Source: Heteroscytonema crispum UTEX LB 1556 (lineage in GTDB: Bacteria > Cyanobacteriota > Cyanobacteriia > Cyanobacteriales > Nostocaceae). From it: a stretch of 64,000 nucleotides of DNA. A program made the translations under genes and the position numbers. The notes below the pieces were generated by a model, which did no database searches, was not told where the DNA came from, and saw nothing but the letters and a program-made list of their open reading frames with translations. The stretch is from NCBI GenBank assembly GCA_044006015.1, contig JBIPDF010000002.1, positions 24,666-88,665 on the forward strand, written 5' to 3'. Of this stretch, positions 1 through 21,490 are shown one piece after another (the stretch's first letter is position 1; each line of letters begins with the position of its first letter).

Positions 1-731
1 GCTAAATGAGGGCTCACTTCATCCCGTTCCCAAATATTCTCTCCTGTATATGAGTCTGTCGCCAATTGTTGCGGCAATTTTCCTACTAATAAATAAATAG
101 CTGTTAGCCCCAAACTATACAAGTCACTGGCAAAAACTGGACGCCCTGCTGCTTGTTCGTTGGGCATAAATCCCGGTGTGCCAACAACTATTGAACTGCT
201 GACGTTTCCTTCTGAATTTAACACTGTTGCCATCGTTTCTCGCACGGCTCCAAAGTCAATTAAAACTGGTTCGTCATCAGATGAACGCAAAATAATATTG
301 TCTGGCTTAATATCACGGTGGATGATGCCTTTACTATGTATAAAATCCAGTATTTTTAACAACCTGATTAAAATTGAGCGCACCTGACTTTCACTCAAGC
401 AGCCGCTTTCTTCTACTTTTTGGATGAGGGTTTGTCCGGAAATAAATTCTTGTACTAAATAAAATTGACCATTTGTTTGAAAGTAAGCATATAAGCTGGG
501 AATTTGATTGCTGAGTCCTCCCAATTCTTCTAATATTGCAGCTTCTCTTTGAAAGCGCTTTTGGATCAGATTGTGTACCTGAGAACTCTCGGTAAAAGGT
601 TTTAGTTGTTTAATTACGCAACGACGCCCAGAAGGCATTTGGGTGTCTTCTGCTAGGAATGTTTCGCAAAATCCACCAGTTCCAAGTATACTGATAATGC
701 GATAGCGATCGCTCAAAAATTTTGGTATCAT
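1..731 (-). CDS. Ser/Thr protein kinase, N-terminal catalytic part; the gene's 3' end lies beyond the window start
   Basis: Minus-strand translation starting at ATG (complement of 729-731) reads MIPKFLSDRYRIISILGTGGFCETFLAED...HRDIKPDNIIL...DFGAVRE...GTPGFMPNEQ. Gly-rich loop, HRDxKPxN catalytic loop, DFG motif and an APE-like block are present. The ORF runs off the window edge, so it is absent from the ORF track. Confidence 0.8.
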   Translation of the reverse strand, partial: MIPKFLSDRYRIISILGTGGFCETFLAEDTQMPSGRRCVIKQLKPFTESSQVHNLIQKRFQREAAILEELGGLSNQIPSLYAYFQTNGQFYLVQEFISGQTLIQKVEESGCLSESQVRSILIRLLKILDFIHSKGIIHRDIKPDNIILRSSDDEPVLIDFGAVRETMATVLNSEGNVSSSIVVGTPGFMPNEQAAGRPVFASDLYSLGLTAIYLLVGKLPQQLATDSYTGENIWERDEVSPHL

Positions 732-1151
732 CACCCTTTATTGACTCAGGTTTTTCTGGAATCACTCTCGATTGTTAACAGGCTGCAACTACCAATTTTT
801 ACAACTCTTAATTTTATTTATGTATAAAAAATACTTGCTCACCCCCCGGAAGAAATCAAGTGGTAGCCCTTTAAATTTATTAAATTCTTATATTATACCA
901 GTAAAGAATATTAAAAATTGCTGTTTTGATAACTGTAAGTATATATAAACAATAAAGAAACAACAATTATTTACTTATTTACTAAAAAGTAGGATAAGTA
1001 AGATAAGTAGGATAAATTGTAAGTTTTTAATTTTTTTTAAAGATTTTTATTGACAAATGCGGAAAAATCAAGACAAACAATCAAAAACACAAATCAATTT
1101 CAGAAATAGTAAATATATTATTCCCAGATATTCTGTGTGGTTAAACCATAC

Positions 1152-1228
1152 ATATAGCAGTCCGCGCAATTTAGAAACCGGGTTTCTGGACACCGTGAAC
1201 TTTGACGCTCTGATATAGAATTGCTATA
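1152..1228. mobile_element. MITE-like element, family A copy (TIR atatagca(a/g)tcc ... gaattgctata)
   Basis: Shares its core gaaaccgggtttctggacaccgtgaactttcac and terminal inverted repeats with copies at 38019-38125 and 56538-56640, and with an inverted partial copy near 30845-30950. Confidence 0.5.
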
Positions 1229-1508
1229 ACAACATAACAGTCATCGGAACGCGCCAATTTTCTGTTGCGACGAACAGTTAGAAAATCCTTGGCTTGTCAA
1301 GAATTGGTCTGCCCAAAAAATCGAGATTGTTTTTGTCAGTCTATCTCTATTAACTTAATAAGTTTATTGATTTTTAAATCAATTATAAAATTAAATGATA
1401 ATTTATGGAATATCTAATTTCTGCATTAATAAAAAATTATCAAAGTCGAAGAAAAAAAAGTCAAACTTTATAAAATATCCAGCTTGATATCAGCTTGAGG
1501 TTAACCCG

Positions 1509-4202
1509 ATGCTTGCTTCAGATGTGGCTATGAGTAGTACCTACGACTTACGTCTTGTAGGGCTTTCAATATTGATTGCAGTCCTTGCTTCATATACCGC
1601 ACTTGATTTAGCAGGGCGGGTAACGGCATCTAAGGGATGGGCTAGACTTGCTTGGTTGTTTGGCGGCGCGATCGTGATGGGAATCGGTATCTGGGCGATG
1701 TATTTTGTGGCGATGCTGGCTTTCAGTCTGCCGATACCGATCGCCTATGATATGTTGACCGTGTTGCTGTCAATGCTGCCTGCGATTATCGCCTCTGGCA
1801 GCGCACTTCTTCTCGCCAGTCGCCGATTTTTGAGCATGGGGCAATTGCTAATTGGCGGTATTTTAATGGGTATTGGTATCGCGTCGATGCATTACATTGG
1901 CATGAACGCGATTCAAATTGAAGCCACCATTGAATATAATCCGTTACTGTTTGGGCTTTCTGTGGCGATCGCTATTTGCGCGTCGATTGCAGCGCTGTGG
2001 ATTGCTTTCCAACTCGGTACCCAAAGCAGCGCCACTGTGGAGTGGTCTAAAATTGTCAGCGCGATTGTCATGGGAGGCGCGATCGCTGGGATGCATTACA
2101 CGGGAATGGCGGCGGTTCGCTTCACGCCCACTAACCCAAAAGCAATATCTGCATCAGAGACAGTAAACGATTCCTTAAACTGGCTGGCTGTTTCTATCGG
2201 TATTGCAACCTTTGTAATTTTAGGTTTCGCGCTGATTACAGCGTTTATCGATCGCCGTTTAACCGACCAAGCAAAGCTTTTAGAATTGCAAGAAGCCGAA
2301 GCCAAACGTTCGCAACTATTTACAGATATTACCTTACGAATTCGGCGATCGCTCAAATTGGAGGATGTTTTAAATACAACCGTCCACGAAGTTCGCCAAG
2401 CATTGAAAGCAGACCGTGTAGTTATCTATCGCTTCAATCCTGACTGGACTGGTACTATCATCGCCGAGTCAGTAGCACCAAATTGGATGCAAACCAAAGG
2501 GAGAACAATTAATGACCCTTTTCGAGAAGATTACATCCAAATATACGCTCAAGGGCGAGTCAAAGCTACCAACAATATTTATAAAGCCGGTTTTACAACT
2601 TGCCATAGAGAGATTTTAGAAGGCTTGCAAATTAAGGCAAATTTGGTTGCCCCAATTGTCAATAACAATCAACTTGTCAGCTTATTATGTGCCCATCAAT
2701 GCTCTAAACCTCGATATTGGCAGAAAACTGAAATTGAATTAGTCAAACAGTTAGCAATTCAAGTTGGTATTGCCTTAGAACAAGCAAGTTTGCTGAGAGA
2801 ATTTCAGGAAGCACAGAAAGTTTTGCGGCTTCGCGATCGCGCGATCGCAGCAGCGAGTAATGCCATCATCATTACCGATCCGCGTTTACCAGACAACCCG
2901 ATCATTTTTTGCAATCCTGCTTTTGAAACAATTACAGGCTATTTACCAGAAGAAGCCATTGGGCGTAACTGTCGATTTCTGCAAGGGAAAGATACAGATC
3001 CAGCCACCCTGCATAAATTACGCAGTGCAATTCGCGATGGACATGAATGTCAAGTTGTAATTAAGAATTACCGCAAAGATGGCAATTTTTTCTGGACAGA
3101 ATTAACGATTTCTCCAGTGCGAGACGCCTTTGGACAAGTAATAAATTATATTGGCGTGCAATCTGATATTACCTTACGCAAGCAGGCGGAAGAAGAATTA
3201 AAGCGCAGTCAAGAAGCCCTGCAAAGCCAGTTGCTAAAGCTGCTGACAGACGTGAAAGAAGCATCCGGCAATTTAGCTGCGGGTGAAATTTCAACCAGTG
3301 AAATTGGGGTAGTAGCTGATGTTTTTAATACCATCATCCAGAACTTGCGGCAAATAGCTACTCAAGTCAAAACAACTGCTTATCAAGTGAATGTTTCCCT
3401 TGAGGAAAACTCGAGTGCGATCGCGCAATTGGCGGATGAAGCACTCAAACATGGCGAAGAGATTAGCCACGCCCTTGAGGAAATGGATAAAATGAATCTC
3501 TCAATTCAAATTGTGGCAGATAGCGCCCGCCAAGCCGCAGAAGTCGCCAATACTACCTCAAACACAGCACAGGCGGCTGGATTTGCTATTGATAACACTG
3601 TCAGCAGTATCTTGAATTTGCAACGGACAATTACAGAAAAAGCGAACAAAGTCAAGCGTTTGGGCGAATCTTCTCAAAAAATTTCCTATGTTGTGTCATT
3701 GATTGGGCAAATTGCCTTGCAAACCAACTTATTAGCCATCAACGCCAAGATAGAGGCTGTGGGAGTGGGTAAAGAAGGTAGAGGTTTGGCGATCGTAGCG
3801 GAACAAATTGCTAAATTAGCAGAACAATCTATCGAAGCAACCAAAGAAATTCAAGAAATGTTGGAAAACATCGAATTAGAAACTAGCGAAGTGGTGAAAG
3901 CCATACAGCTAGGAACAATCGAATTAGTGGAAGGAGTAAATTTTGTCCAAGATGCCAAGTATAACTTAGAGCAAATTTTAGAAGTATCTTGTCAAATTGA
4001 CAATTTAGTGCATTCAATTTCGACAGCAACAGCATGTCAAACACAAACTTATCACGCGATCGCACTACAGATGAAAGAGATAGCGTCTGCTTCTCAAAGC
4101 ACAGCAGATTCGTCGCGCATGGTGTCTAACTCCCTGCAGCAAACCCAACAAGTAGCACAACAATTGCAAGCCTCTGTAGGTATATTTAATACTGGCAGTT
4201 AG
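1509..4202 (+). CDS. Multi-sensor methyl-accepting chemotaxis protein: MHYT membrane domain + phytochrome-class GAF + LOV + HAMP-like + MCP signalling domain
   Basis: 897-aa ORF. The N-terminus has six predicted TM segments carrying MYFVAM, MHYIGM and MHYTGM (MHYT repeats). The GAF has [18 protein letters not shown] and [21 protein letters not shown], the Cys-His plus LVxPI signature of bilin-binding GAFs. The LOV core reads [13 protein letters not shown]...[18 protein letters not shown]...IGVQSDIT. The C-terminus has [34 protein letters not shown], the highly conserved MCP signalling block. Confidence 0.85.
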
Positions 4203-4205
4203 AGA

Positions 4206-4488
4206 GGGCAATGGGCAATGGGCAATGGGCAATGGGCAATGGGCAATGGGCAATGGGCAAGGTAAATAAATTAGTTTTTATAATTCCCAATGTTTAATTC
4301 CCAATGTTTAATTTCCAATGTTTAATTTCCAATGTTTAATTCCCAATGCCCAATTCCCATTGCCCAATTCCCATTGCCCAATGCCCAATTCCCAATTCCC
4401 ATTGCCCAATTCCCATTGCCCAATGCCCAATCCCCAATTCCCAATTCCCAATGCCCGATGCCCAATGCCCAATGCCCAATACCCAATG
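4206..4488. repeat. STRR array: 8 direct GGGCAAT heptamers followed by a ~220 bp block of complementary-type heptamers (CCCAATG/CCCAATT/CCCATTG); potential long imperfect hairpin
   Basis: Read directly from the sequence. It lies exactly between the stop of the + strand receptor gene (4202) and the stop of recN on the - strand (4490). ORFs 4065..4253 and 4318..4626 are translations of the repeat. Confidence 0.9.
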
Positions 4489-4489
4489 A

Positions 4490-6238
4490 CTATTCAACTT
4501 GTTGTCGGTGATTCGCGGCTTGATTTAACAACGATTCGGCAAATGCGATCGCTTCTTGGGCTGACTTTCCACCTGCTAATTGCGCTAGTTCGTCCCGCCG
4601 TGTGGTTAAATTCTCTAATGCCGTAACTCGCACTACGGTTCGCTCTTCGCTGTTACCATTGTTCTCTTTTTTACCTTTGAATTGATTGATTGTTTGCTTA
4701 TCTACCCTAAAATGGCGGTCTGCCATTGCTGCTACTAAGGGTTGGTGTGTAACACACAATACCTGTTGCTGTTGGCTGAGTTGGTGTAATTTTTCGGCGA
4801 TCGCTTGGGCGACTCTCCCGGAAACGCCAACGTCAATTTCATCAAATACCATTGTCCCCGCTGCGTCTGCTTGGTAAAAACAAGCTTTCAACGCTAGCAA
4901 AAAGCGACTCATTTCTCCACCCGAAGCAATTTCTGTTAAAGGTTGCATTGGTTCCCCTGGATTGGGGCTAAACATAAAAGTAATTTTGTCTGCACCTGCA
5001 GCGGTTGGCAATGTCGGTACAATTTCCACTTGAAATTGGACTTTTTCCATCGCTAGGGGCTTGAGTTCTGCAATCAATCGTGCTTCTAAATTTGCAGCAG
5101 TTTTTTGACGCAATTTTGTTAACTGGTTGCAAGCTTGGGTAAGTTTTTCCAAAGACGCTTTTTCTTGCTGTTCCAGACTTTCAATAGATAGTTCGCTGTC
5201 GTTAAGTTCGGTTAATTCCCCTTGGATGCGCTGGTAATAAGCGATCGCTTCTTGTAATGTCGGACCATATTTGCGACAAATTTGCTTTAATTCCCGAATC
5301 CGTTCTTCTACCTCTTCCAAACGCTGCGGATCGGCTTCTAAAGCTTCCCCATAAGCATTAATTTGCCTCGCCACTTCCACGATTGTGGCTTGGGCATCCC
5401 GCACCAAGTCCAACATCGGCTGCAACTGGGTATCATATTCTACCATATCAGTTAATGTCGCCTCGCTGTCTCCCAGCAAGTCAGCAGCGGCTGCGGCTTC
5501 ATTATCATTTTGATACAAAGCCTGATAGATTTTGTAACTCATCTGTTGCAATTCAACCACATGATTGAGACGCTGGCGTTCTTGTTCTAGCAATTCCAAT
5601 TCATTCGGTTCGTTGAGATTTGCGCCTCCCAACTCCTGCACTTGATAAGTTAATAAATCAAATTGTTGCAAACGTTCCCGTTCCGAAGTCCGGCGTTTTT
5701 CTAAAACCAGATGTGCTTGTTGATAAGCACTAAAAGCAGTAGCGATGAATTGACGCTTTTGCAGCTGCGAATCACCGCCGTAAACATCCAACCAATCGCG
5801 GACTTGTGCAGACTGTCCCACCAATACAGTTTGACCTTGGGCGGTAATTTCCACCAAGCGATCGCGCAAACCGTTCATCAACTGTCGATTTACCAACACG
5901 CCATTTACACGCGAACGGCTGCGGATATTACTGACAGTAGCGGTAATTTCGCGACTGATGACTGCGGAATTATCATCAATTAAATCAATTTCCTGTTCGG
6001 TCAACCAAGCAGCTAAGGAACGGTTAATAGTGAACGTAGCTTCCACCATAGCGCGACTCGTCCCCGTGCGAATCACGCGACTAGAGACTTTACCACCCAA
6101 AGCCGCATCAATCGCATCCAGGATAATCGACTTACCCGCACCGGTTTCCCCTGTCAAGACATTCAGTCCAGCACCAAATTCTAATTCTAGCTGGTCAATG
6201 AGGGCAAAATTTTCAATTCGCAGGCAGAGCAACATCAA
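4490..6238 (-). CDS. recN: DNA repair protein RecN
   Basis: [49 protein letters not shown] at the N-terminus (Walker A), a long coiled-coil middle, and a C-terminal [13 protein letters not shown] signature typical of RecN/SMC-like proteins. Confidence 0.9.
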
Positions 6239-12026: not shown

Positions 12027-13085
12027 TTATTCTTCGTAGCGACTGACGCGGAAAATTACATAATTGTAAGGAAGCGTATAACTATTATCTCTATTGACAA
12101 TCGCGCCCATCTCTGGTTTGTAAACCCATTGTTTCCAATCAATTGCGATTTCATTAGAAACCTGTACCGCAATATAATTTCCCTCGGCTAGGCGACACCC
12201 CATAGCCGAATTTTCAAAGTCCAATCCCAGAAAAAATTTCTGTACAGCAACATTTTTATTGCGTTGCGCCAGTAATTTTACTACTCCCAAAGTAATTTCT
12301 GTAAAAGGCGCGATCGCTGGTTGGGCTGTTGTTAAAAGTTTGAGTCCACTTTGAAAAGGTGAAGATTCTAATGCTGCTAATATTGTCTGGTCTTCCTCAT
12401 TTTTAACGTTCACCGTCGAGCATTCAAAGGCTACTCCCTGAGAACCCACATTTAAACCAATAAACACAGGGTAGCCAGAAATACCAGCAGACTGTCCCTC
12501 TTGTACGCGGTAAGTTTGGCTGAAGCTGACTGACTCTTGCGTGTCGGCTACTTGATTGCGGACAGCAAAAGTAACCATAACATTGTGCGTACCTTCCCCA
12601 GGATACTTTTCAATATGCAAGCGATCGAGACGAATGTTGATGCGGCTGTTTTTGAGAGTATTATCGGGTTCAATTGCGCTGGGATGTTCGATGGGTTGAG
12701 ACTTCATTAAACCTGATTTACGAGGTGCAATGTAGCCAAATTTATGCGTTGTATACATCCAGGGTTGGTCATGGACTAAGTTTAAAAACTTTAAAATCCC
12801 TTTGTCATACAAAGTTGCGGTCAAAAGTAACCCTTTGGGCGATGGGTGGTGGGGTGGTGGGGTGATATTGTTCTCCCTATCTCCCCATCTCCCTATCTCC
12901 CCATCTCCCGATGCCTCAGTTACTATTTTTGAATGCAACTTAGTATCACCCTGTTCTAGATTAGTATCTCCCACAACATCGCTCTTGACATCGGGGTCTT
13001 TCATCTGTTGCAGCTTTGCAGCTATCCATTTAGGGTCTTCGGATTCGCCAATAACCTTGATGTCATCGAATACACTACTGAACAC
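12027..13085 (-). CDS. Hypothetical protein, no recognisable domain; disordered N-terminus (~90 aa) partly encoded by an STRR array
   Basis: Long ORF with plausible cyanobacterial codon usage. Positions 12840-12900 (ggtggtggggtgg...ccccatctccctatctcc) encode PPPHHPSPKG...GDGEIGRWGD. It lies 27 nt upstream of the caspase-like fragment on the same strand. Confidence 0.6.
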   Translation of the reverse strand: MFSSVFDDIKVIGESEDPKWIAAKLQQMKDPDVKSDVVGDTNLEQGDTKLHSKIVTEASGDGEIGRWGDRENNITPPPHHPSPKGLLLTATLYDKGILKFLNLVHDQPWMYTTHKFGYIAPRKSGLMKSQPIEHPSAIEPDNTLKNSRINIRLDRLHIEKYPGEGTHNVMVTFAVRNQVADTQESVSFSQTYRVQEGQSAGISGYPVFIGLNVGSQGVAFECSTVNVKNEEDQTILAALESSPFQSGLKLLTTAQPAIAPFTEITLGVVKLLAQRNKNVAVQKFFLGLDFENSAMGCRLAEGNYIAVQVSNEIAIDWKQWVYKPEMGAIVNRDNSYTLPYNYVIFRVSRYEE

Positions 13086-18045: not shown

Positions 18046-19431
18046 ATGAAATTACCTGATGGACCGAAAACTCCCTCTTGGTTGCAGTTATTACAGTGGG
18101 TTGCTGACCCTTTAAATTATATGGAAACTGCTTTCCAACGCTATGGAGATGTTTTTACCGTTCGCTGGGGTAGTATTTACCCAGAAGCGGTGTTCATCAG
18201 TAACCCGCAAGCAATTCAAGAAATTTTTACCGCTGACCCGAAGCTATTTGACTCCGGTCGAGGAAATGGACTGGGCAAAGTTTTTGTGGGAGAACACTCC
18301 ATGCTGTTGTTGGATGGATCTAGCCACCAGCGTCGGCGACGGCTGTTGACTCCCCCTTTTCATGGCGAACGGATGCAAGCTTATGGTGATTTGATTTGCA
18401 CCCTCGCCAAACAAATCAGCAATAAGTGGACAATTAACAAGCCCTTCTCTGTAAGAGAATCAATGCAAGAAATTAGTTTGCGCGTCATTTTGCAAGCAGT
18501 GTTTGGTCTTAATGAAGGACCGCGTTATGAAAAACTCAGACAACTGCTAGCAGCAATGATGGATTTGACAGCCTCTCCCTTAAGAGCATCTATGCTGTTT
18601 TTTAAGTTCTTGCAAAAGGATTTCGGGGCTTGGAGTCCGTGGGGATATTTTCGGCGTCAGCAGCAGCAAATTGATAGTCTACTCTACGCCGAAATTGACC
18701 AGAGACGTAGAGAAAACGACCCCAACCGCACTGATATTCTCTCCTTGATTATCTCAGCTCGCGATGAGCAAGGTGAAGGAATGACAGATGAAGAGTTGCG
18801 CGATGAATTGATAACTCTGCTGTTGGCTGGTCATGAAACTACAGCAACTTCCTTATGTTGGGCTTTATACTGGATTCACTACCAGCCCCAGGTAAGAGAA
18901 AAGTTACTCCAAGAACTCAATAGCCTAAGTGAAAATCCACAGCCTACAGATATTTTTCGCTTACCCTATCTAACTGCTGTCTGCCAAGAGATAATTCGGA
19001 TTTATCCGCCATTATTCCTTACCTGGCCCCGGATTTTAAAAGCTCCCTTAAAAGTGGGGGATTATGAATTTGATACTGATACCGTCCTACTGCCTTGTAT
19101 TTATCTTACCCATCACCGTGAGGATATTTACCCAGAAGCGAATCAGTTTAAACCGGAACGTTTTTTAGAACGGCAATATTCTCCTGGGGAATTTTTACCC
19201 TTTGGTGGGGGAAATCGTCGGTGTCTTGGTGCGGCATTGGCGATGTTTGAAATGAAGCTGGTATTGGCAACAATCCTATCAAATTATCAACTGGCGCTGG
19301 TTGATAACCGACCGGTGAAACCACGGCGGCGAGCCTTTTTTCTCGCCCCTGCTGCTGGGTTCAAGATGGTGATGACAGGTAGGCGCGTGGGTCAAGGGCA
19401 GCTCAATGAGCCTGTTGGTAGCTCAGTTTAA
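18046..19431 (+). CDS. Cytochrome P450 (CYP110-like, tentative family)
   Basis: Heme-binding loop FGGGNRRCLGAALAMFEMK (FxxGxRxCxG), ETLR-type ExxR motif (EIIRIYP), and I-helix AGHETTA. 461 aa. Confidence 0.9.
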   Translation: MKLPDGPKTPSWLQLLQWVADPLNYMETAFQRYGDVFTVRWGSIYPEAVFISNPQAIQEIFTADPKLFDSGRGNGLGKVFVGEHSMLLLDGSSHQRRRRLLTPPFHGERMQAYGDLICTLAKQISNKWTINKPFSVRESMQEISLRVILQAVFGLNEGPRYEKLRQLLAAMMDLTASPLRASMLFFKFLQKDFGAWSPWGYFRRQQQQIDSLLYAEIDQRRRENDPNRTDILSLIISARDEQGEGMTDEELRDELITLLLAGHETTATSLCWALYWIHYQPQVREKLLQELNSLSENPQPTDIFRLPYLTAVCQEIIRIYPPLFLTWPRILKAPLKVGDYEFDTDTVLLPCIYLTHHREDIYPEANQFKPERFLERQYSPGEFLPFGGGNRRCLGAALAMFEMKLVLATILSNYQLALVDNRPVKPRRRAFFLAPAAGFKMVMTGRRVGQGQLNEPVGSSV

Positions 19432-19915: not shown

Positions 19916-21490
19916 TTGTTGGGCGAAGGTAGATTCATGTTCCAAGAGATTGCGGCTCAGATTGCTTTGTCCTCATCATTTCCATATCTAGCCACAGTTT
20001 TAGGCGTTACTAGCATCGGGGGAATACTTGGCTGGCGTTGGTGGAAACAAAACAACATTTATAAATCTCTACAGTCACTTCCCTCTCCTCCCAGACACTG
20101 GCTATTAGGGAATATTCCTCAAGTATTAGCAGCAGTCAAAGAGAAAAAATACTTCCAATTATTATTCGATTGGTCACAACAGCTAGGCCCGATGTATGTT
20201 TACTGGAATGGCTATCCAATTGTCGTTTTAAGTAAGCCAAAAGCGATCGAAGACACCATTATAAATGGTATGCGAGATGGAAGCCTGGTTAGGTCTCAGC
20301 GATCGCGTAAAGCTTGGAACGACATAAGTGGTCCTATTCTTTTAGGTCAAACCGGGACTGAATGGCAGTGGCGACGCAAGGCTTGGAACCCCGAATTTAG
20401 TTCTAGCGGTCTCTCCAAATATGTTGAAATTATTGGTCAAGCCTGCGAACAGGTAATTGAGAGAATAAAGGAAACTACGCCGCAAAAAGAGGTTCAGGTA
20501 GATCCTCTATTTGTAGAACTGACAATGAGGGTGATTTCCTGTCTAGTACTGGGCATTCCTGTGGATAGAAACACCAATAGTCCTGAAGGACCACCCCTCC
20601 AAGTTCTCAAGGTGTACGAGGCTATGTCTATTGTCGGCTATCGGTTCTTACGGGTAGCTACTGGTGAGAAGAGATGGATGAAATATCTACCAACTAAGGC
20701 TTCACGAGATTACTGGGCAGCAAGGCGATATTTAGAGGAGTTTATTACTCCCCGAGTAGACTTAGCTTTACAGATGAGAGAACAAAACAAGATGCATTTA
20801 GGGCAGGTAAGTCCTTTGTTTCAGGAATCTATGCTAGTTAAAATAGCGACCAAAGAACCAAAATACAATCGGGAATCACTGATAGCAGAATCTATTGAAA
20901 TCTTACTAGCTGGCACTGACACAACGGCTCATACTTTATCCTTTGCAGTAGGGGAATTGAAGCTAAATCAACGGGTTTTTCAGCAGGCACAGTCCATTGT
21001 TGACCAAGTTTGGGAAAGTCAAGGCAGCATTAATACAGAAAGCCTGAAGGAATTGACTTACATTCGTGCCATTATCAAGGAGACTTTGCGCCTTTATTCA
21101 GTAGCATCAGGCTCGACTTCATTGGAGGCTCAACGTGATACCGTTATTGAGGGACAGGTTATTCCTCGTGGCACGAAAGTGTTCTGGTCAATGTTTGCTG
21201 CTGGGCGAGACCGAGAAGTTTATCCTCATCCCGAAGAATTTCTACCAGAGCGATGGTTAGAGAAAGGTAAGGAAAGTAGTCCACTGCCAATGATAGACTT
21301 TGGCTCAGGTTCTCATCGTTGCTTGGGAGAGCATCTGTCAATGCTAGAAGCAACGGTGATGCTGGCACTGCTGCTCCGCTACTTCGACTGGGAATTGGTC
21401 AACGGTCGTTCATCTCTGGAACAGTTACAGCAGAACCTTTTGATTTATCCTTCCGATGGAATGCCGGTGCGCTTTTGGTTGAGAAAGTAG
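19916..21490 (+). CDS. Cytochrome P450 with N-terminal membrane anchor
   Basis: FGSGSHRCLGEHLSMLEA heme-binding loop, ETLRLYS ExxR motif, I-helix AGTDTTA, and an N-terminal hydrophobic segment. A likely start lies at an internal Met (MFQEIAAQ...). Confidence 0.85.
   Translation: MLGEGRFMFQEIAAQIALSSSFPYLATVLGVTSIGGILGWRWWKQNNIYKSLQSLPSPPRHWLLGNIPQVLAAVKEKKYFQLLFDWSQQLGPMYVYWNGYPIVVLSKPKAIEDTIINGMRDGSLVRSQRSRKAWNDISGPILLGQTGTEWQWRRKAWNPEFSSSGLSKYVEIIGQACEQVIERIKETTPQKEVQVDPLFVELTMRVISCLVLGIPVDRNTNSPEGPPLQVLKVYEAMSIVGYRFLRVATGEKRWMKYLPTKASRDYWAARRYLEEFITPRVDLALQMREQNKMHLGQVSPLFQESMLVKIATKEPKYNRESLIAESIEILLAGTDTTAHTLSFAVGELKLNQRVFQQAQSIVDQVWESQGSINTESLKELTYIRAIIKETLRLYSVASGSTSLEAQRDTVIEGQVIPRGTKVFWSMFAAGRDREVYPHPEEFLPERWLEKGKESSPLPMIDFGSGSHRCLGEHLSMLEATVMLALLLRYFDWELVNGRSSLEQLQQNLLIYPSDGMPVRFWLRK

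Follow-up and report, generated by a model that had tools for sequence, protein, structure and literature searches.

A putative dual-colour light receptor with MHYT, GAF, LOV and MCP modules in the cyanobacterium Heteroscytonema crispum

The receptor described here is encoded in a stretch of 64,000 nucleotides of the genome of Heteroscytonema crispum UTEX LB 1556 (contig JBIPDF010000002.1, positions 24,666 to 88,665), which was analyzed as a whole and is called the window in the following; all coordinates are counted from its first letter. The gene is located at 1509..4202 on the forward strand, and its product combines a membrane-integral MHYT domain, a cyanobacteriochrome-type GAF domain, a LOV domain, and the signalling hairpin of a methyl-accepting chemotaxis protein (MCP). 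We interpret it as an orphan light receptor for two colours that is derived from PixJ, with a single-Cys bilin GAF domain and a LOV domain with flavin mononucleotide (FMN) arranged in series, and it would feed a Che system that is encoded elsewhere. The probability of this reading is estimated to be about one in two. The analysis shows the domains and their residues, the predicted continuity of the helices, the distribution of the family, and the gene context, from which we infer that cofactors are bound, that the receptor is a dimer, and with which partner and to what effect it signals.

Domain architecture of the receptor

The gene is one intact open reading frame (ORF) with an ATG start codon, and it encodes 897 amino acids plus the stop codon. 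A first-pass annotation, which had been made from the letters of the sequence, had given exactly these coordinates, and all motifs quoted there are present in the translation. Its four domain assignments are supported by Pfam profiles, i.e., MHYT PF03707 (E-value 6.7e-49, 164.1 bits versus a cutoff of 21, in four stretches), GAF (1.1e-21, residues 284-423), PAS_9 for the LOV domain (5.9e-22, residues 452-555), and MCPsignal PF00015 (6.8e-30, residues 678-860, 104.6 bits versus a cutoff of 34.6). The HAMP profile, which had also been proposed for inspection, matched residues 575-615 with an E-value of 0.11, which is under its cutoff.

An independent assembly (a Logan contig of SRR31418076) covers positions 1174-4235 of the window with 0 mismatches and supports the unusual residues of the receptor, including Tyr65 (see below). 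It contains one extra T near position 2115, and the resulting frameshift splits the gene into a 208-aa MHYT ORF and a 638-aa GAF-LOV-MCP ORF. The extra T could reflect a genuine frameshift allele or a mistake in sequencing or assembly; it looks like a mistake, because only one T is added to a run of Ts in an assembly of short reads. The reading frame of the window copy near 2115 is the consensus frame of the family.

An AlphaFold2 (AF2) model was calculated from an alignment of 31 family sequences and has a mean predicted local distance difference test (pLDDT) value of 72.6, with values of 80-92 for GAF and LOV, 75-85 for MHYT, and 50-70 for the coiled coil, which was modelled as a monomer. 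The order of the modules in the model is six MHYT helices, a seventh transmembrane helix (TM7), GAF, LOV, J-alpha, a connector, and the MCP hairpin. TM7 (residues 217-280, 2157..2357, with a hydropathy peak at 226-244) runs without a break into the N-terminal helix of the GAF domain according to the DSSP assignment of the model, and likewise the C-terminal helix of the GAF domain continues into the A'alpha helix of the LOV domain (residues 406-447, 2724..2849). The segment 3177..3368 comprises J-alpha (555-585), a disordered connector (586-597), and the start of the next helix, and it contains the degenerate HAMP-like motif that is seen in the sub-cutoff Pfam match. The MCP hairpin (3369..4199, supported by PF00015 and by the model) consists of an N-arm (598-752), a tip (753-758), and a C-arm (759-890).

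The GAF domain (residues 284-425, 2358..2783) belongs, as judged from its sequence, to the cyanobacteriochrome class, and it is closest to the DXCF cyanobacteriochromes, such as TePixJ, and to the single-Cys GAF domain of PPHK. In phmmer searches of the PDB it matched PPHK (6OAP, 7.6e-42), TePixJ (3VV4, 2.8e-39), NpR6012g4 (5e-38), and AnPixJg2 (2.8e-32). A Foldseek comparison of the modelled domain with cyanobacteriochrome GAF domains gave target-normalized TM-scores (TMt) of 0.81-0.94, including 0.83-0.89 for TePixJ and 0.84-0.94 at 1.3-1.5 Å for miRFP670nano. In a four-way alignment the TTCH of the window protein, with Cys365 (2601-2603) and His366 (2604-2606), is placed on the TECH of TePixJ and PPHK, which includes the Cys-His of bilin attachment. 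Asp336 (2514-2516) is aligned with the Asp of DPCF in TePixJ and DQYF in PPHK, the conserved Asp that contacts the pyrrole nitrogens. The class of the domain and the position of its Cys-His site had thus been predicted correctly; what is missing is the second Cys of the DXCF motif, opposite of which the window protein has a one-residue gap (INDP-FRE versus IEDPCFRE in TePixJ). This Cys is absent from all MHYT relatives (93/93) and present in the relatives P0115-P0119, which have no MHYT domain (protein clusters are designated with P and genomic loci with L). An alternative insert-Cys was sought in the GAF domain and not found, and no other Cys can replace the DXCF Cys, because the only cysteines of the domain are 365, 394, and 398.

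The alignment characterizes the domain as a DXCF-derived single-Cys GAF domain that has lost its second Cys by deletion. Therefore, a two-Cys blue/green cycle like that of TePixJ is not expected, and this possibility was rejected. Two further assignments were also rejected. A phytochrome is not compatible with the lack of a Pfam PHY domain in the receptor and with phytochrome matches that span only the first ~50 residues of the GAF query (E-values 1e-4 to 1e-8), and the far-red cyanobacteriochrome lineage is represented by a score of only 3.6e-15 for Anacy_2551g3. The closest solved relative is the GAF domain of PPHK from Leptolyngbya sp. JSC-1, which likewise lacks the DXCF Cys (DQYF) and has one residue more than the window GAF at this position. 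PPHK is also a multi-input sensor, but it signals through a histidine kinase and has REC instead of LOV as its second input. Its GAF domain binds phycocyanobilin (PCB), has a Pg state at 562 nm, and has been classified as red/green (PMC11480761; bioRxiv 10.1101/2020.06.02.130930). By analogy, these spectra may serve as a precedent for the window GAF, and they are not a prediction of its colour. The retained Cys-His suggests bilin binding and is no proof of it, because the chromophore cysteines are evolutionarily labile in the family.

The LOV domain (residues 450-556, 2856..3176; core 452-553 in the AF2 model) is covered by the NCBIfam model for YtvA-family blue-light photoreceptors (residues 444-576, 2e-46), and it matched MrLOVe (PDB 9VF7) with 5e-38 and the Brucella LOV domain in Foldseek with a TMt of 0.89 at 0.9 Å. 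The motif GRNCRFLQG is present and contains the adduct-forming Cys488, the TGT codon of which is at 2970-2972, one base downstream of the position given in the first-pass annotation (2969-2971). The flavin contacts Arg489, Gln492, Arg505, Asn520, and Gln551 have been kept. The same annotation had called this core a textbook example, which is true for the motif with its Cys, but Thr530 replaces the second conserved Asn (N492 of AsLOV2), a position at which relatives carry Asn, Ser, or Cys. The residue census thus yields five of the six canonical contacts (Arg, Gln, Arg, Asn, Asn, Gln), or 6/7 if Cys488 is counted, and the core can be regarded as near-canonical on this basis. YtvA, the Brucella LOV histidine kinase, and MrLOVe share GRNCRFLQG, the Arg/Gln/Arg/Asn/Gln contacts, the flanking A'alpha and J-alpha helices, and the fold (TMt 0.88-0.89) with the window LOV, which differs from them in Thr530 and in its location between a GAF domain and an MCP hairpin.

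The MHYT domain (residues 14-201, 1548..2111) was recognized by its Pfam profile and in the AF2 model, which has helices at residues 14-40, 44-71, 82-103, 110-133, 145-171, and 177-201, followed by TM7. The motifs MYFV (64-67), MHYI (127-130), and MHYT (195-198) are situated near the outer ends of TM2, TM4, and TM6. Three MHYT-type repeats in an N-terminus with six transmembrane helices had been predicted; the domain was confirmed, but the first repeat is Met-Tyr-Phe, with Tyr65 (TAT, 1701-1703) instead of His, and a seventh transmembrane helix has to be added. Repeats 2 and 3 are intact, and the complete set of Met-His-Tyr residues, the proposed metal ligands, is absent from the window receptor; 89 of the 93 relatives have His at the repeat-1 position. 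Cu, O2, NO, or CO have been proposed as ligands of MHYT domains. It appears from this exchange of His65 to Tyr that the MHYT input is weakened in the window copy, and the main role of the domain may be that of a membrane anchor or of an auxiliary input. Foldseek did not match the model with any solved MHYT structure in the PDB, and a review of 2022 still gave the function of the domain as unknown. The six-helix core, the seventh transmembrane helix, and the placement of the three motifs described above are shared with MHYT signalling proteins (Galperin, 2001), in contrast to the output, which is an MCP instead of HisK or GGDEF/EAL, and to the absent His of repeat 1.

In the HAMP-like motif the family consensus is KGDLTVRAE..GEIGIVADFFNTIIESL, which is also found in the PixJ-like P0098. 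It has degenerated to SGNLAAGE.. in the window receptor, i.e., GDLTVR has been changed to GNLAAG. The long antiparallel MCP hairpin has kept its length and its GRG turn, but it does not contain the canonical tip motif (EAARAGE.GRGFAVVA). A Gly occupies the Arg position of the tip, and Leu760 replaces a near-invariant Phe, an exchange that was found in only one further cluster. Basal clades of the family have retained the tip as EAARAGE, EAAKAGEEGRAF, or EASRAGEE.QGF, whereas the clade of the window receptor, here called the W-tip clade, has replaced the canonical Arg with Trp (EAAWVGKEGRGF), with the Gly of the window receptor as a deviation within it. We take the two positions to be R388 and F396 of Escherichia coli Tsr, which matter for trimer contacts and kinase control. 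Therefore, by analogy with Tsr, the coupling of the window MCP tip may be altered, which we regard as a lead.

A family with variable cofactor sites

The first-pass annotation had seen an unusual chimera in this protein. It is not singular, as about 93 full-length protein clusters (880-940 aa, 55-70% identical to the window protein) share its architecture, the nearest full-length relative being 70% identical. All named sources are Nostocales (Nostoc, Scytonema, Tolypothrix, Brasilonema, Mastigocladopsis, Aetokthonos, Iphinoe, and Kalymmatonema), and several genomes contain 2-3 paralogues. Outside of Nostocales no full four-module protein was seen, and MHYT is joined to other modules there. A scan of genome contigs revealed about 8 full-length family loci among the matches listed, which were dominated by generic MHYT proteins. 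With clustering at 50% identity, about one representative of the whole family is left in a set of 1.84 billion proteins. All modules are known, and the family is already contained in databases under generic names, e.g., 'MHYT domain-containing protein' or 'MCP with phytochrome sensor'. A literature search for the architecture (MHYT with cyanobacteriochrome, LOV, or MCP; LOV with cyanobacteriochrome or MCP) did not retrieve any description of it; the only cyanobacteriochrome with an MHYT domain that is listed there is the histidine kinase Glo7428_2205 (MHYT-PAS-GAF-HisK), which resembles the window receptor in the combination of MHYT with a GAF photosensor.

The two pigment-attachment sites vary within the family. 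When the window protein is included in the set, both the GAF Cys-His and the LOV Cys are kept in 29 sequences, among them the window copy, 27 sequences have kept only the Cys-His (bilin-only), another 27 only the LOV Cys (flavin-only), and 11 neither of the two. Loss of the LOV Cys is accompanied by loss of the flavin-contacting Gln and, in about two-thirds of the cases, also of Arg505. A neighbour-joining tree was rooted on the DPCF relatives, and site changes were counted by Fitch parsimony, which requires a minimum of 14 changes for the GAF Cys-His and of four for the LOV Cys. The clades with canonical tips are basal in this tree, and the clade of the window protein is derived. The window protein is the sister of P0002-P0015, of which 10/12 have kept both cysteines, while P0009 and P0013 of the same clade have lost the Cys-His and kept the LOV Cys. 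Within the clade the identity to the window protein is 81% for LOV, 68% for MHYT, 67% for GAF, and 60% for MCP. At family-conserved columns the window protein has 15 private deviations (rank 24th of 94), which are distributed over MHYT (5), J-alpha/HAMP (3), MCP (6), and GAF (1/48), with none in LOV (0/39).

A tandem of two paralogues was observed in Scytonema sp. NUACC21 (L003, 10001-16253). P0084 has kept the Cys-His, P0059 has Asp-Arg instead, and both have the LOV Cys; several response-regulator and histidine-kinase genes follow.

Relationship to PixJ-type phototaxis receptors

PixJ-type bilin photoreceptor MCPs are the known phototaxis sensors of cyanobacteria. The window receptor resembles TePixJ and SyPixJ1 in the PixJ-type HAMP-like connector, the MCP hairpin, and the GAF domain, which is ~45-50% identical to that of TePixJ over core motifs (DRV.Y.F, AESV, Y.QGR, CH, KANLV.P, and HQCS.PR.WQ). 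In contrast to PixJ-type MCPs, it has DP-F instead of DPCF, a LOV domain inserted between GAF and the HAMP-like connector, an N-terminus of seven transmembrane helices with MHYT instead of two transmembrane helices and HAMP, a diverged tip motif, and a gene outside of a pix/tax operon.

A link between both types is formed by the non-MHYT relatives P0115-P0119, which show ~60% identity with the window protein in the GAF-LOV-MCP part common to both and consist of a sensor at the N-terminus, HAMP, a GAF domain that has retained DPCF, LOV, and MCP with canonical tip. A bilin site and LOV on an MCP thus also occur without MHYT. They represent a recurring theme, because they are found in P0115-P0119 and also in P0134 and P0167, which are MCPs with multiple DXCF GAF domains and LOV; no discussion of this theme was found in the literature accessible to the searches. 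P0116/P0118/P0119, P0134, and P0167 share the 60% identity, the GAF-LOV-MCP order, the canonical Cys-His, and the LOV Cys with the window receptor, but they have kept the DXCF Cys, the tip EAxRAG.EGRGF, and the N-terminal sensor plus HAMP, and lack MHYT.

The gene for P0119 is flanked by genes for a CheY-like response regulator, CheW, and a split hybrid CheA (Hpt plus dimerization domain, then HATPase-CheW-REC), and thus is part of a pix/tax-type operon. The complete operon (L006, 32-6996), with a HAMP-GAF[DPCF]-LOV-MCP gene in its midst, surrounds the closest non-MHYT relative, which is a candidate for the ancestral form of a bilin plus flavin phototaxis receptor. Such a combination of response regulator, CheW, and hybrid CheA genes is not present around the window receptor gene. 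The statement of the first-pass annotation that cheA, cheW, and cheY are absent was corroborated by tblastn, which found no CheW, CheA, Hpt, or CheY-like genes in the 64-kb window, and no che genes are adjacent to MHYT members in the four annotated loci L001, L003, L004, and L005.

Separately, a cyanobacterial metagenome-assembled genome (Cyanobacteriota; L016, 6001-7770) encodes a 590-aa MHYT-MCP protein with canonical tip (NASIEAARAGEAGRGF) and without GAF or LOV; therefore, MHYT-MCP fusions exist independently of photosensor modules.

Proposed function and alternative explanations

According to the scenario that we favour, the family would descend from operon-encoded PixJ-type phototaxis receptors that already possessed a DXCF GAF and a LOV domain. 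In the MHYT lineage the N-terminal sensor and HAMP would have been replaced by the MHYT domain with seven transmembrane helices, the second Cys would have been deleted, and the gene would have left the che operon. The receptor is most likely a parallel homodimer, in which TM7, GAF, LOV, the J-alpha/HAMP-like connector, and the MCP hairpin would form a continuous helical spine. The single-Cys bilin GAF would sense light somewhere in the range from green to red, and the FMN-LOV would sense blue light. A light-driven change in either domain would pass along the spine to the tip of the hairpin, which would modulate CheA/CheW of a type IV pilus system (Pix/Ptx/Hmp-type) encoded elsewhere and thereby bias hormogonium motility. 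LOV, the most conserved domain within the clade, would be the proximal sensor and under the strongest constraint. The integration of three signals (bilin, flavin, and MHYT), which had been put forward before, would be a further step that we infer for the receptor.

Several observations weigh against this interpretation. Two concern the photosensors, namely, the one-residue deletion that adjoins the chromophore-contacting Asp and the Thr530 in place of a flavin-contacting Asn, and three concern signal input and output, i.e., the first MHYT repeat without its His, the degenerate HAMP-like motif, and the non-canonical MCP tip. In addition, there are no che genes nearby, and the literature search did not retrieve experimental data for any member of the family. 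Last, the GAF fold has persisted through at least 14 independent losses of the Cys-His, and from these sequences it appears that many relatives can do without a covalently attached bilin.

The last point leads to an unlikely, albeit serious, alternative, namely, that the protein is a LOV-only blue-light receptor, the GAF domain of which binds no bilin or binds it without consequence and serves as a relay or dimerization module. A GAF domain that is still 67% conserved and has never been deleted in spite of the repeated losses of its Cys-His would fit this role, as would the deletion of the second Cys in all MHYT members, the higher conservation of LOV in the clade of the window protein, and the existence of P0009 and P0013 in the same clade. 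On the other hand, the window protein has kept Asp336, Cys365, and His366 and deviates at a single conserved GAF column, and the single-Cys PPHK is a working PCB photoreceptor. Moreover, 27 clusters have lost the LOV Cys with its Gln and, in most cases, Arg, but have kept the GAF Cys-His, and therefore the GAF site seems to be selectively maintained where LOV is dead.

The diverged tip raises a different question, i.e., whether the receptor is coupled to CheA at all. Upstream of and divergent to the receptor gene lies a gene for a Hanks-type Ser/Thr kinase (1..731, reverse strand; start codon at 731), of which the N-terminal 243 aa are encoded in the window before the gene runs off its left edge. 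The translation contains the kinase motifs GTGGFCETF...HRDIKPDNIIL...DFG. Orthologues that are 75-81% identical occupy the same divergent position in 10 more family loci (L001, L002, L004, L005, L008, and L010-L014) of Nostoc, Amazonocrinis, Brasilonema, Iphinoe, and Scytonema, which is the strongest unexpected signal of the genomic context. The full-length orthologue of L001 has a Pkinase match of 1e-37 and one transmembrane helix near residues 306-330, and its C-terminal region of ~140 aa has no Pfam match. All sampled kinase-linked loci encode receptors of the W-tip clade, including both-, bilin-only, and neither-state proteins, and none of four sampled receptors of other clades (in L003, L007, and L009) has the kinase upstream.

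It is conceivable from these data, yet improbable, that the receptor is not CheA-coupled, and that its diverged MCP hairpin has been re-purposed so that it works with, or is regulated by, the divergent membrane Ser/Thr kinase. The kinase is more conserved than the receptor, its linkage coincides with the exchange of the canonical tip Arg to Trp, to which the window protein adds the exchange of Phe to Leu, and che genes are lacking in the window as well as beside the sampled MHYT members. However, the MCPsignal match is strong, the length of the hairpin and the GRG turn have been kept, and divergent gene pairs need not be partners. It is common for orphan MCPs to feed che clusters that are located at a distance, and we know of no precedent for signalling from an MCP to a Hanks-type kinase. 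It would be a long shot to propose that receptor and kinase are a previously unrecognized pair, in which an MCP-like sensor with three inputs signals via Hanks-type phosphorylation instead of, or besides, CheA. If this were true, the both, bilin-only, flavin-only, and neither variants would show how evolution has retuned the input logic at a single orthologous locus.

Very improbable is a decaying gene, i.e., relaxed selection or a pseudogene in the making without sensory role, which could account for the private changes His65Tyr, GDLTVR to GNLAAG, and Phe760Leu and for the frameshift near 2115 in the near-identical assembly, but the ORF is intact over all 897 codons, the number of deviations makes the protein no outlier in its family, GAF and LOV have been spared, and the frameshift looks like an artefact.

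The family adds a flavin LOV domain in series and a membrane MHYT domain to the PixJ-type theme, outside of the che operon. Four natural states of the cofactor sites exist, at least three of which (both, bilin-only, and neither) are found at the kinase-linked locus, and therefore the family offers a ready-made comparative set for studying the integration of two photosensors on one helical spine and the extent to which either of them is dispensable. The receptor would also give the MHYT domain a tractable output, and LOV-GAF tandems could be templates for two-colour optogenetic tools. Unless binding of the cofactors and an effect on motility are demonstrated, none of this alters current concepts. 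The leads of most use are the mosaic of cofactor-site states among the natural family members and the conserved pairing with the kinase.

Genomic neighbourhood

Kinase and receptor genes are separated by an AT-rich divergent intergenic region of ~777 bp (732..1508), in which promoter-like matches are no more common than in shuffled sequence and which has no Rfam match. Downstream of the receptor gene, Tandem Repeats Finder identified arrays of heptamers that resemble short tandemly repeated repetitive (STRR) sequences (4206..4488). Eight copies of GGGCAAT are followed by 15-22 copies of AATGCCC/AATTCCC, which are roughly inverse to the former. The arrays take up the space between the convergent receptor and recN genes and could form a long hairpin, and an ORF of 102 aa (4318-4626) is merely translated repeat. 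Rfam and promoter/terminator scans of the flanks yielded nothing above chance; a MIR2118 match is the STRR hairpin and far below the gathering score.

Further genes in the window encode RecN, an ABC1 kinase, a GDSL lipase, HisF, RuvB, a TPR protein, and two cytochromes P450. An ORF of 352 aa (12027-13085, reverse strand) has no Pfam match with an E-value of 0.001 or better. The two P450 genes are adjacent to one another (18046-19431 and 19916-21490, forward strand) and follow the gene for the TPR protein; they may belong to a secondary-metabolite or lipid-modifying cluster.

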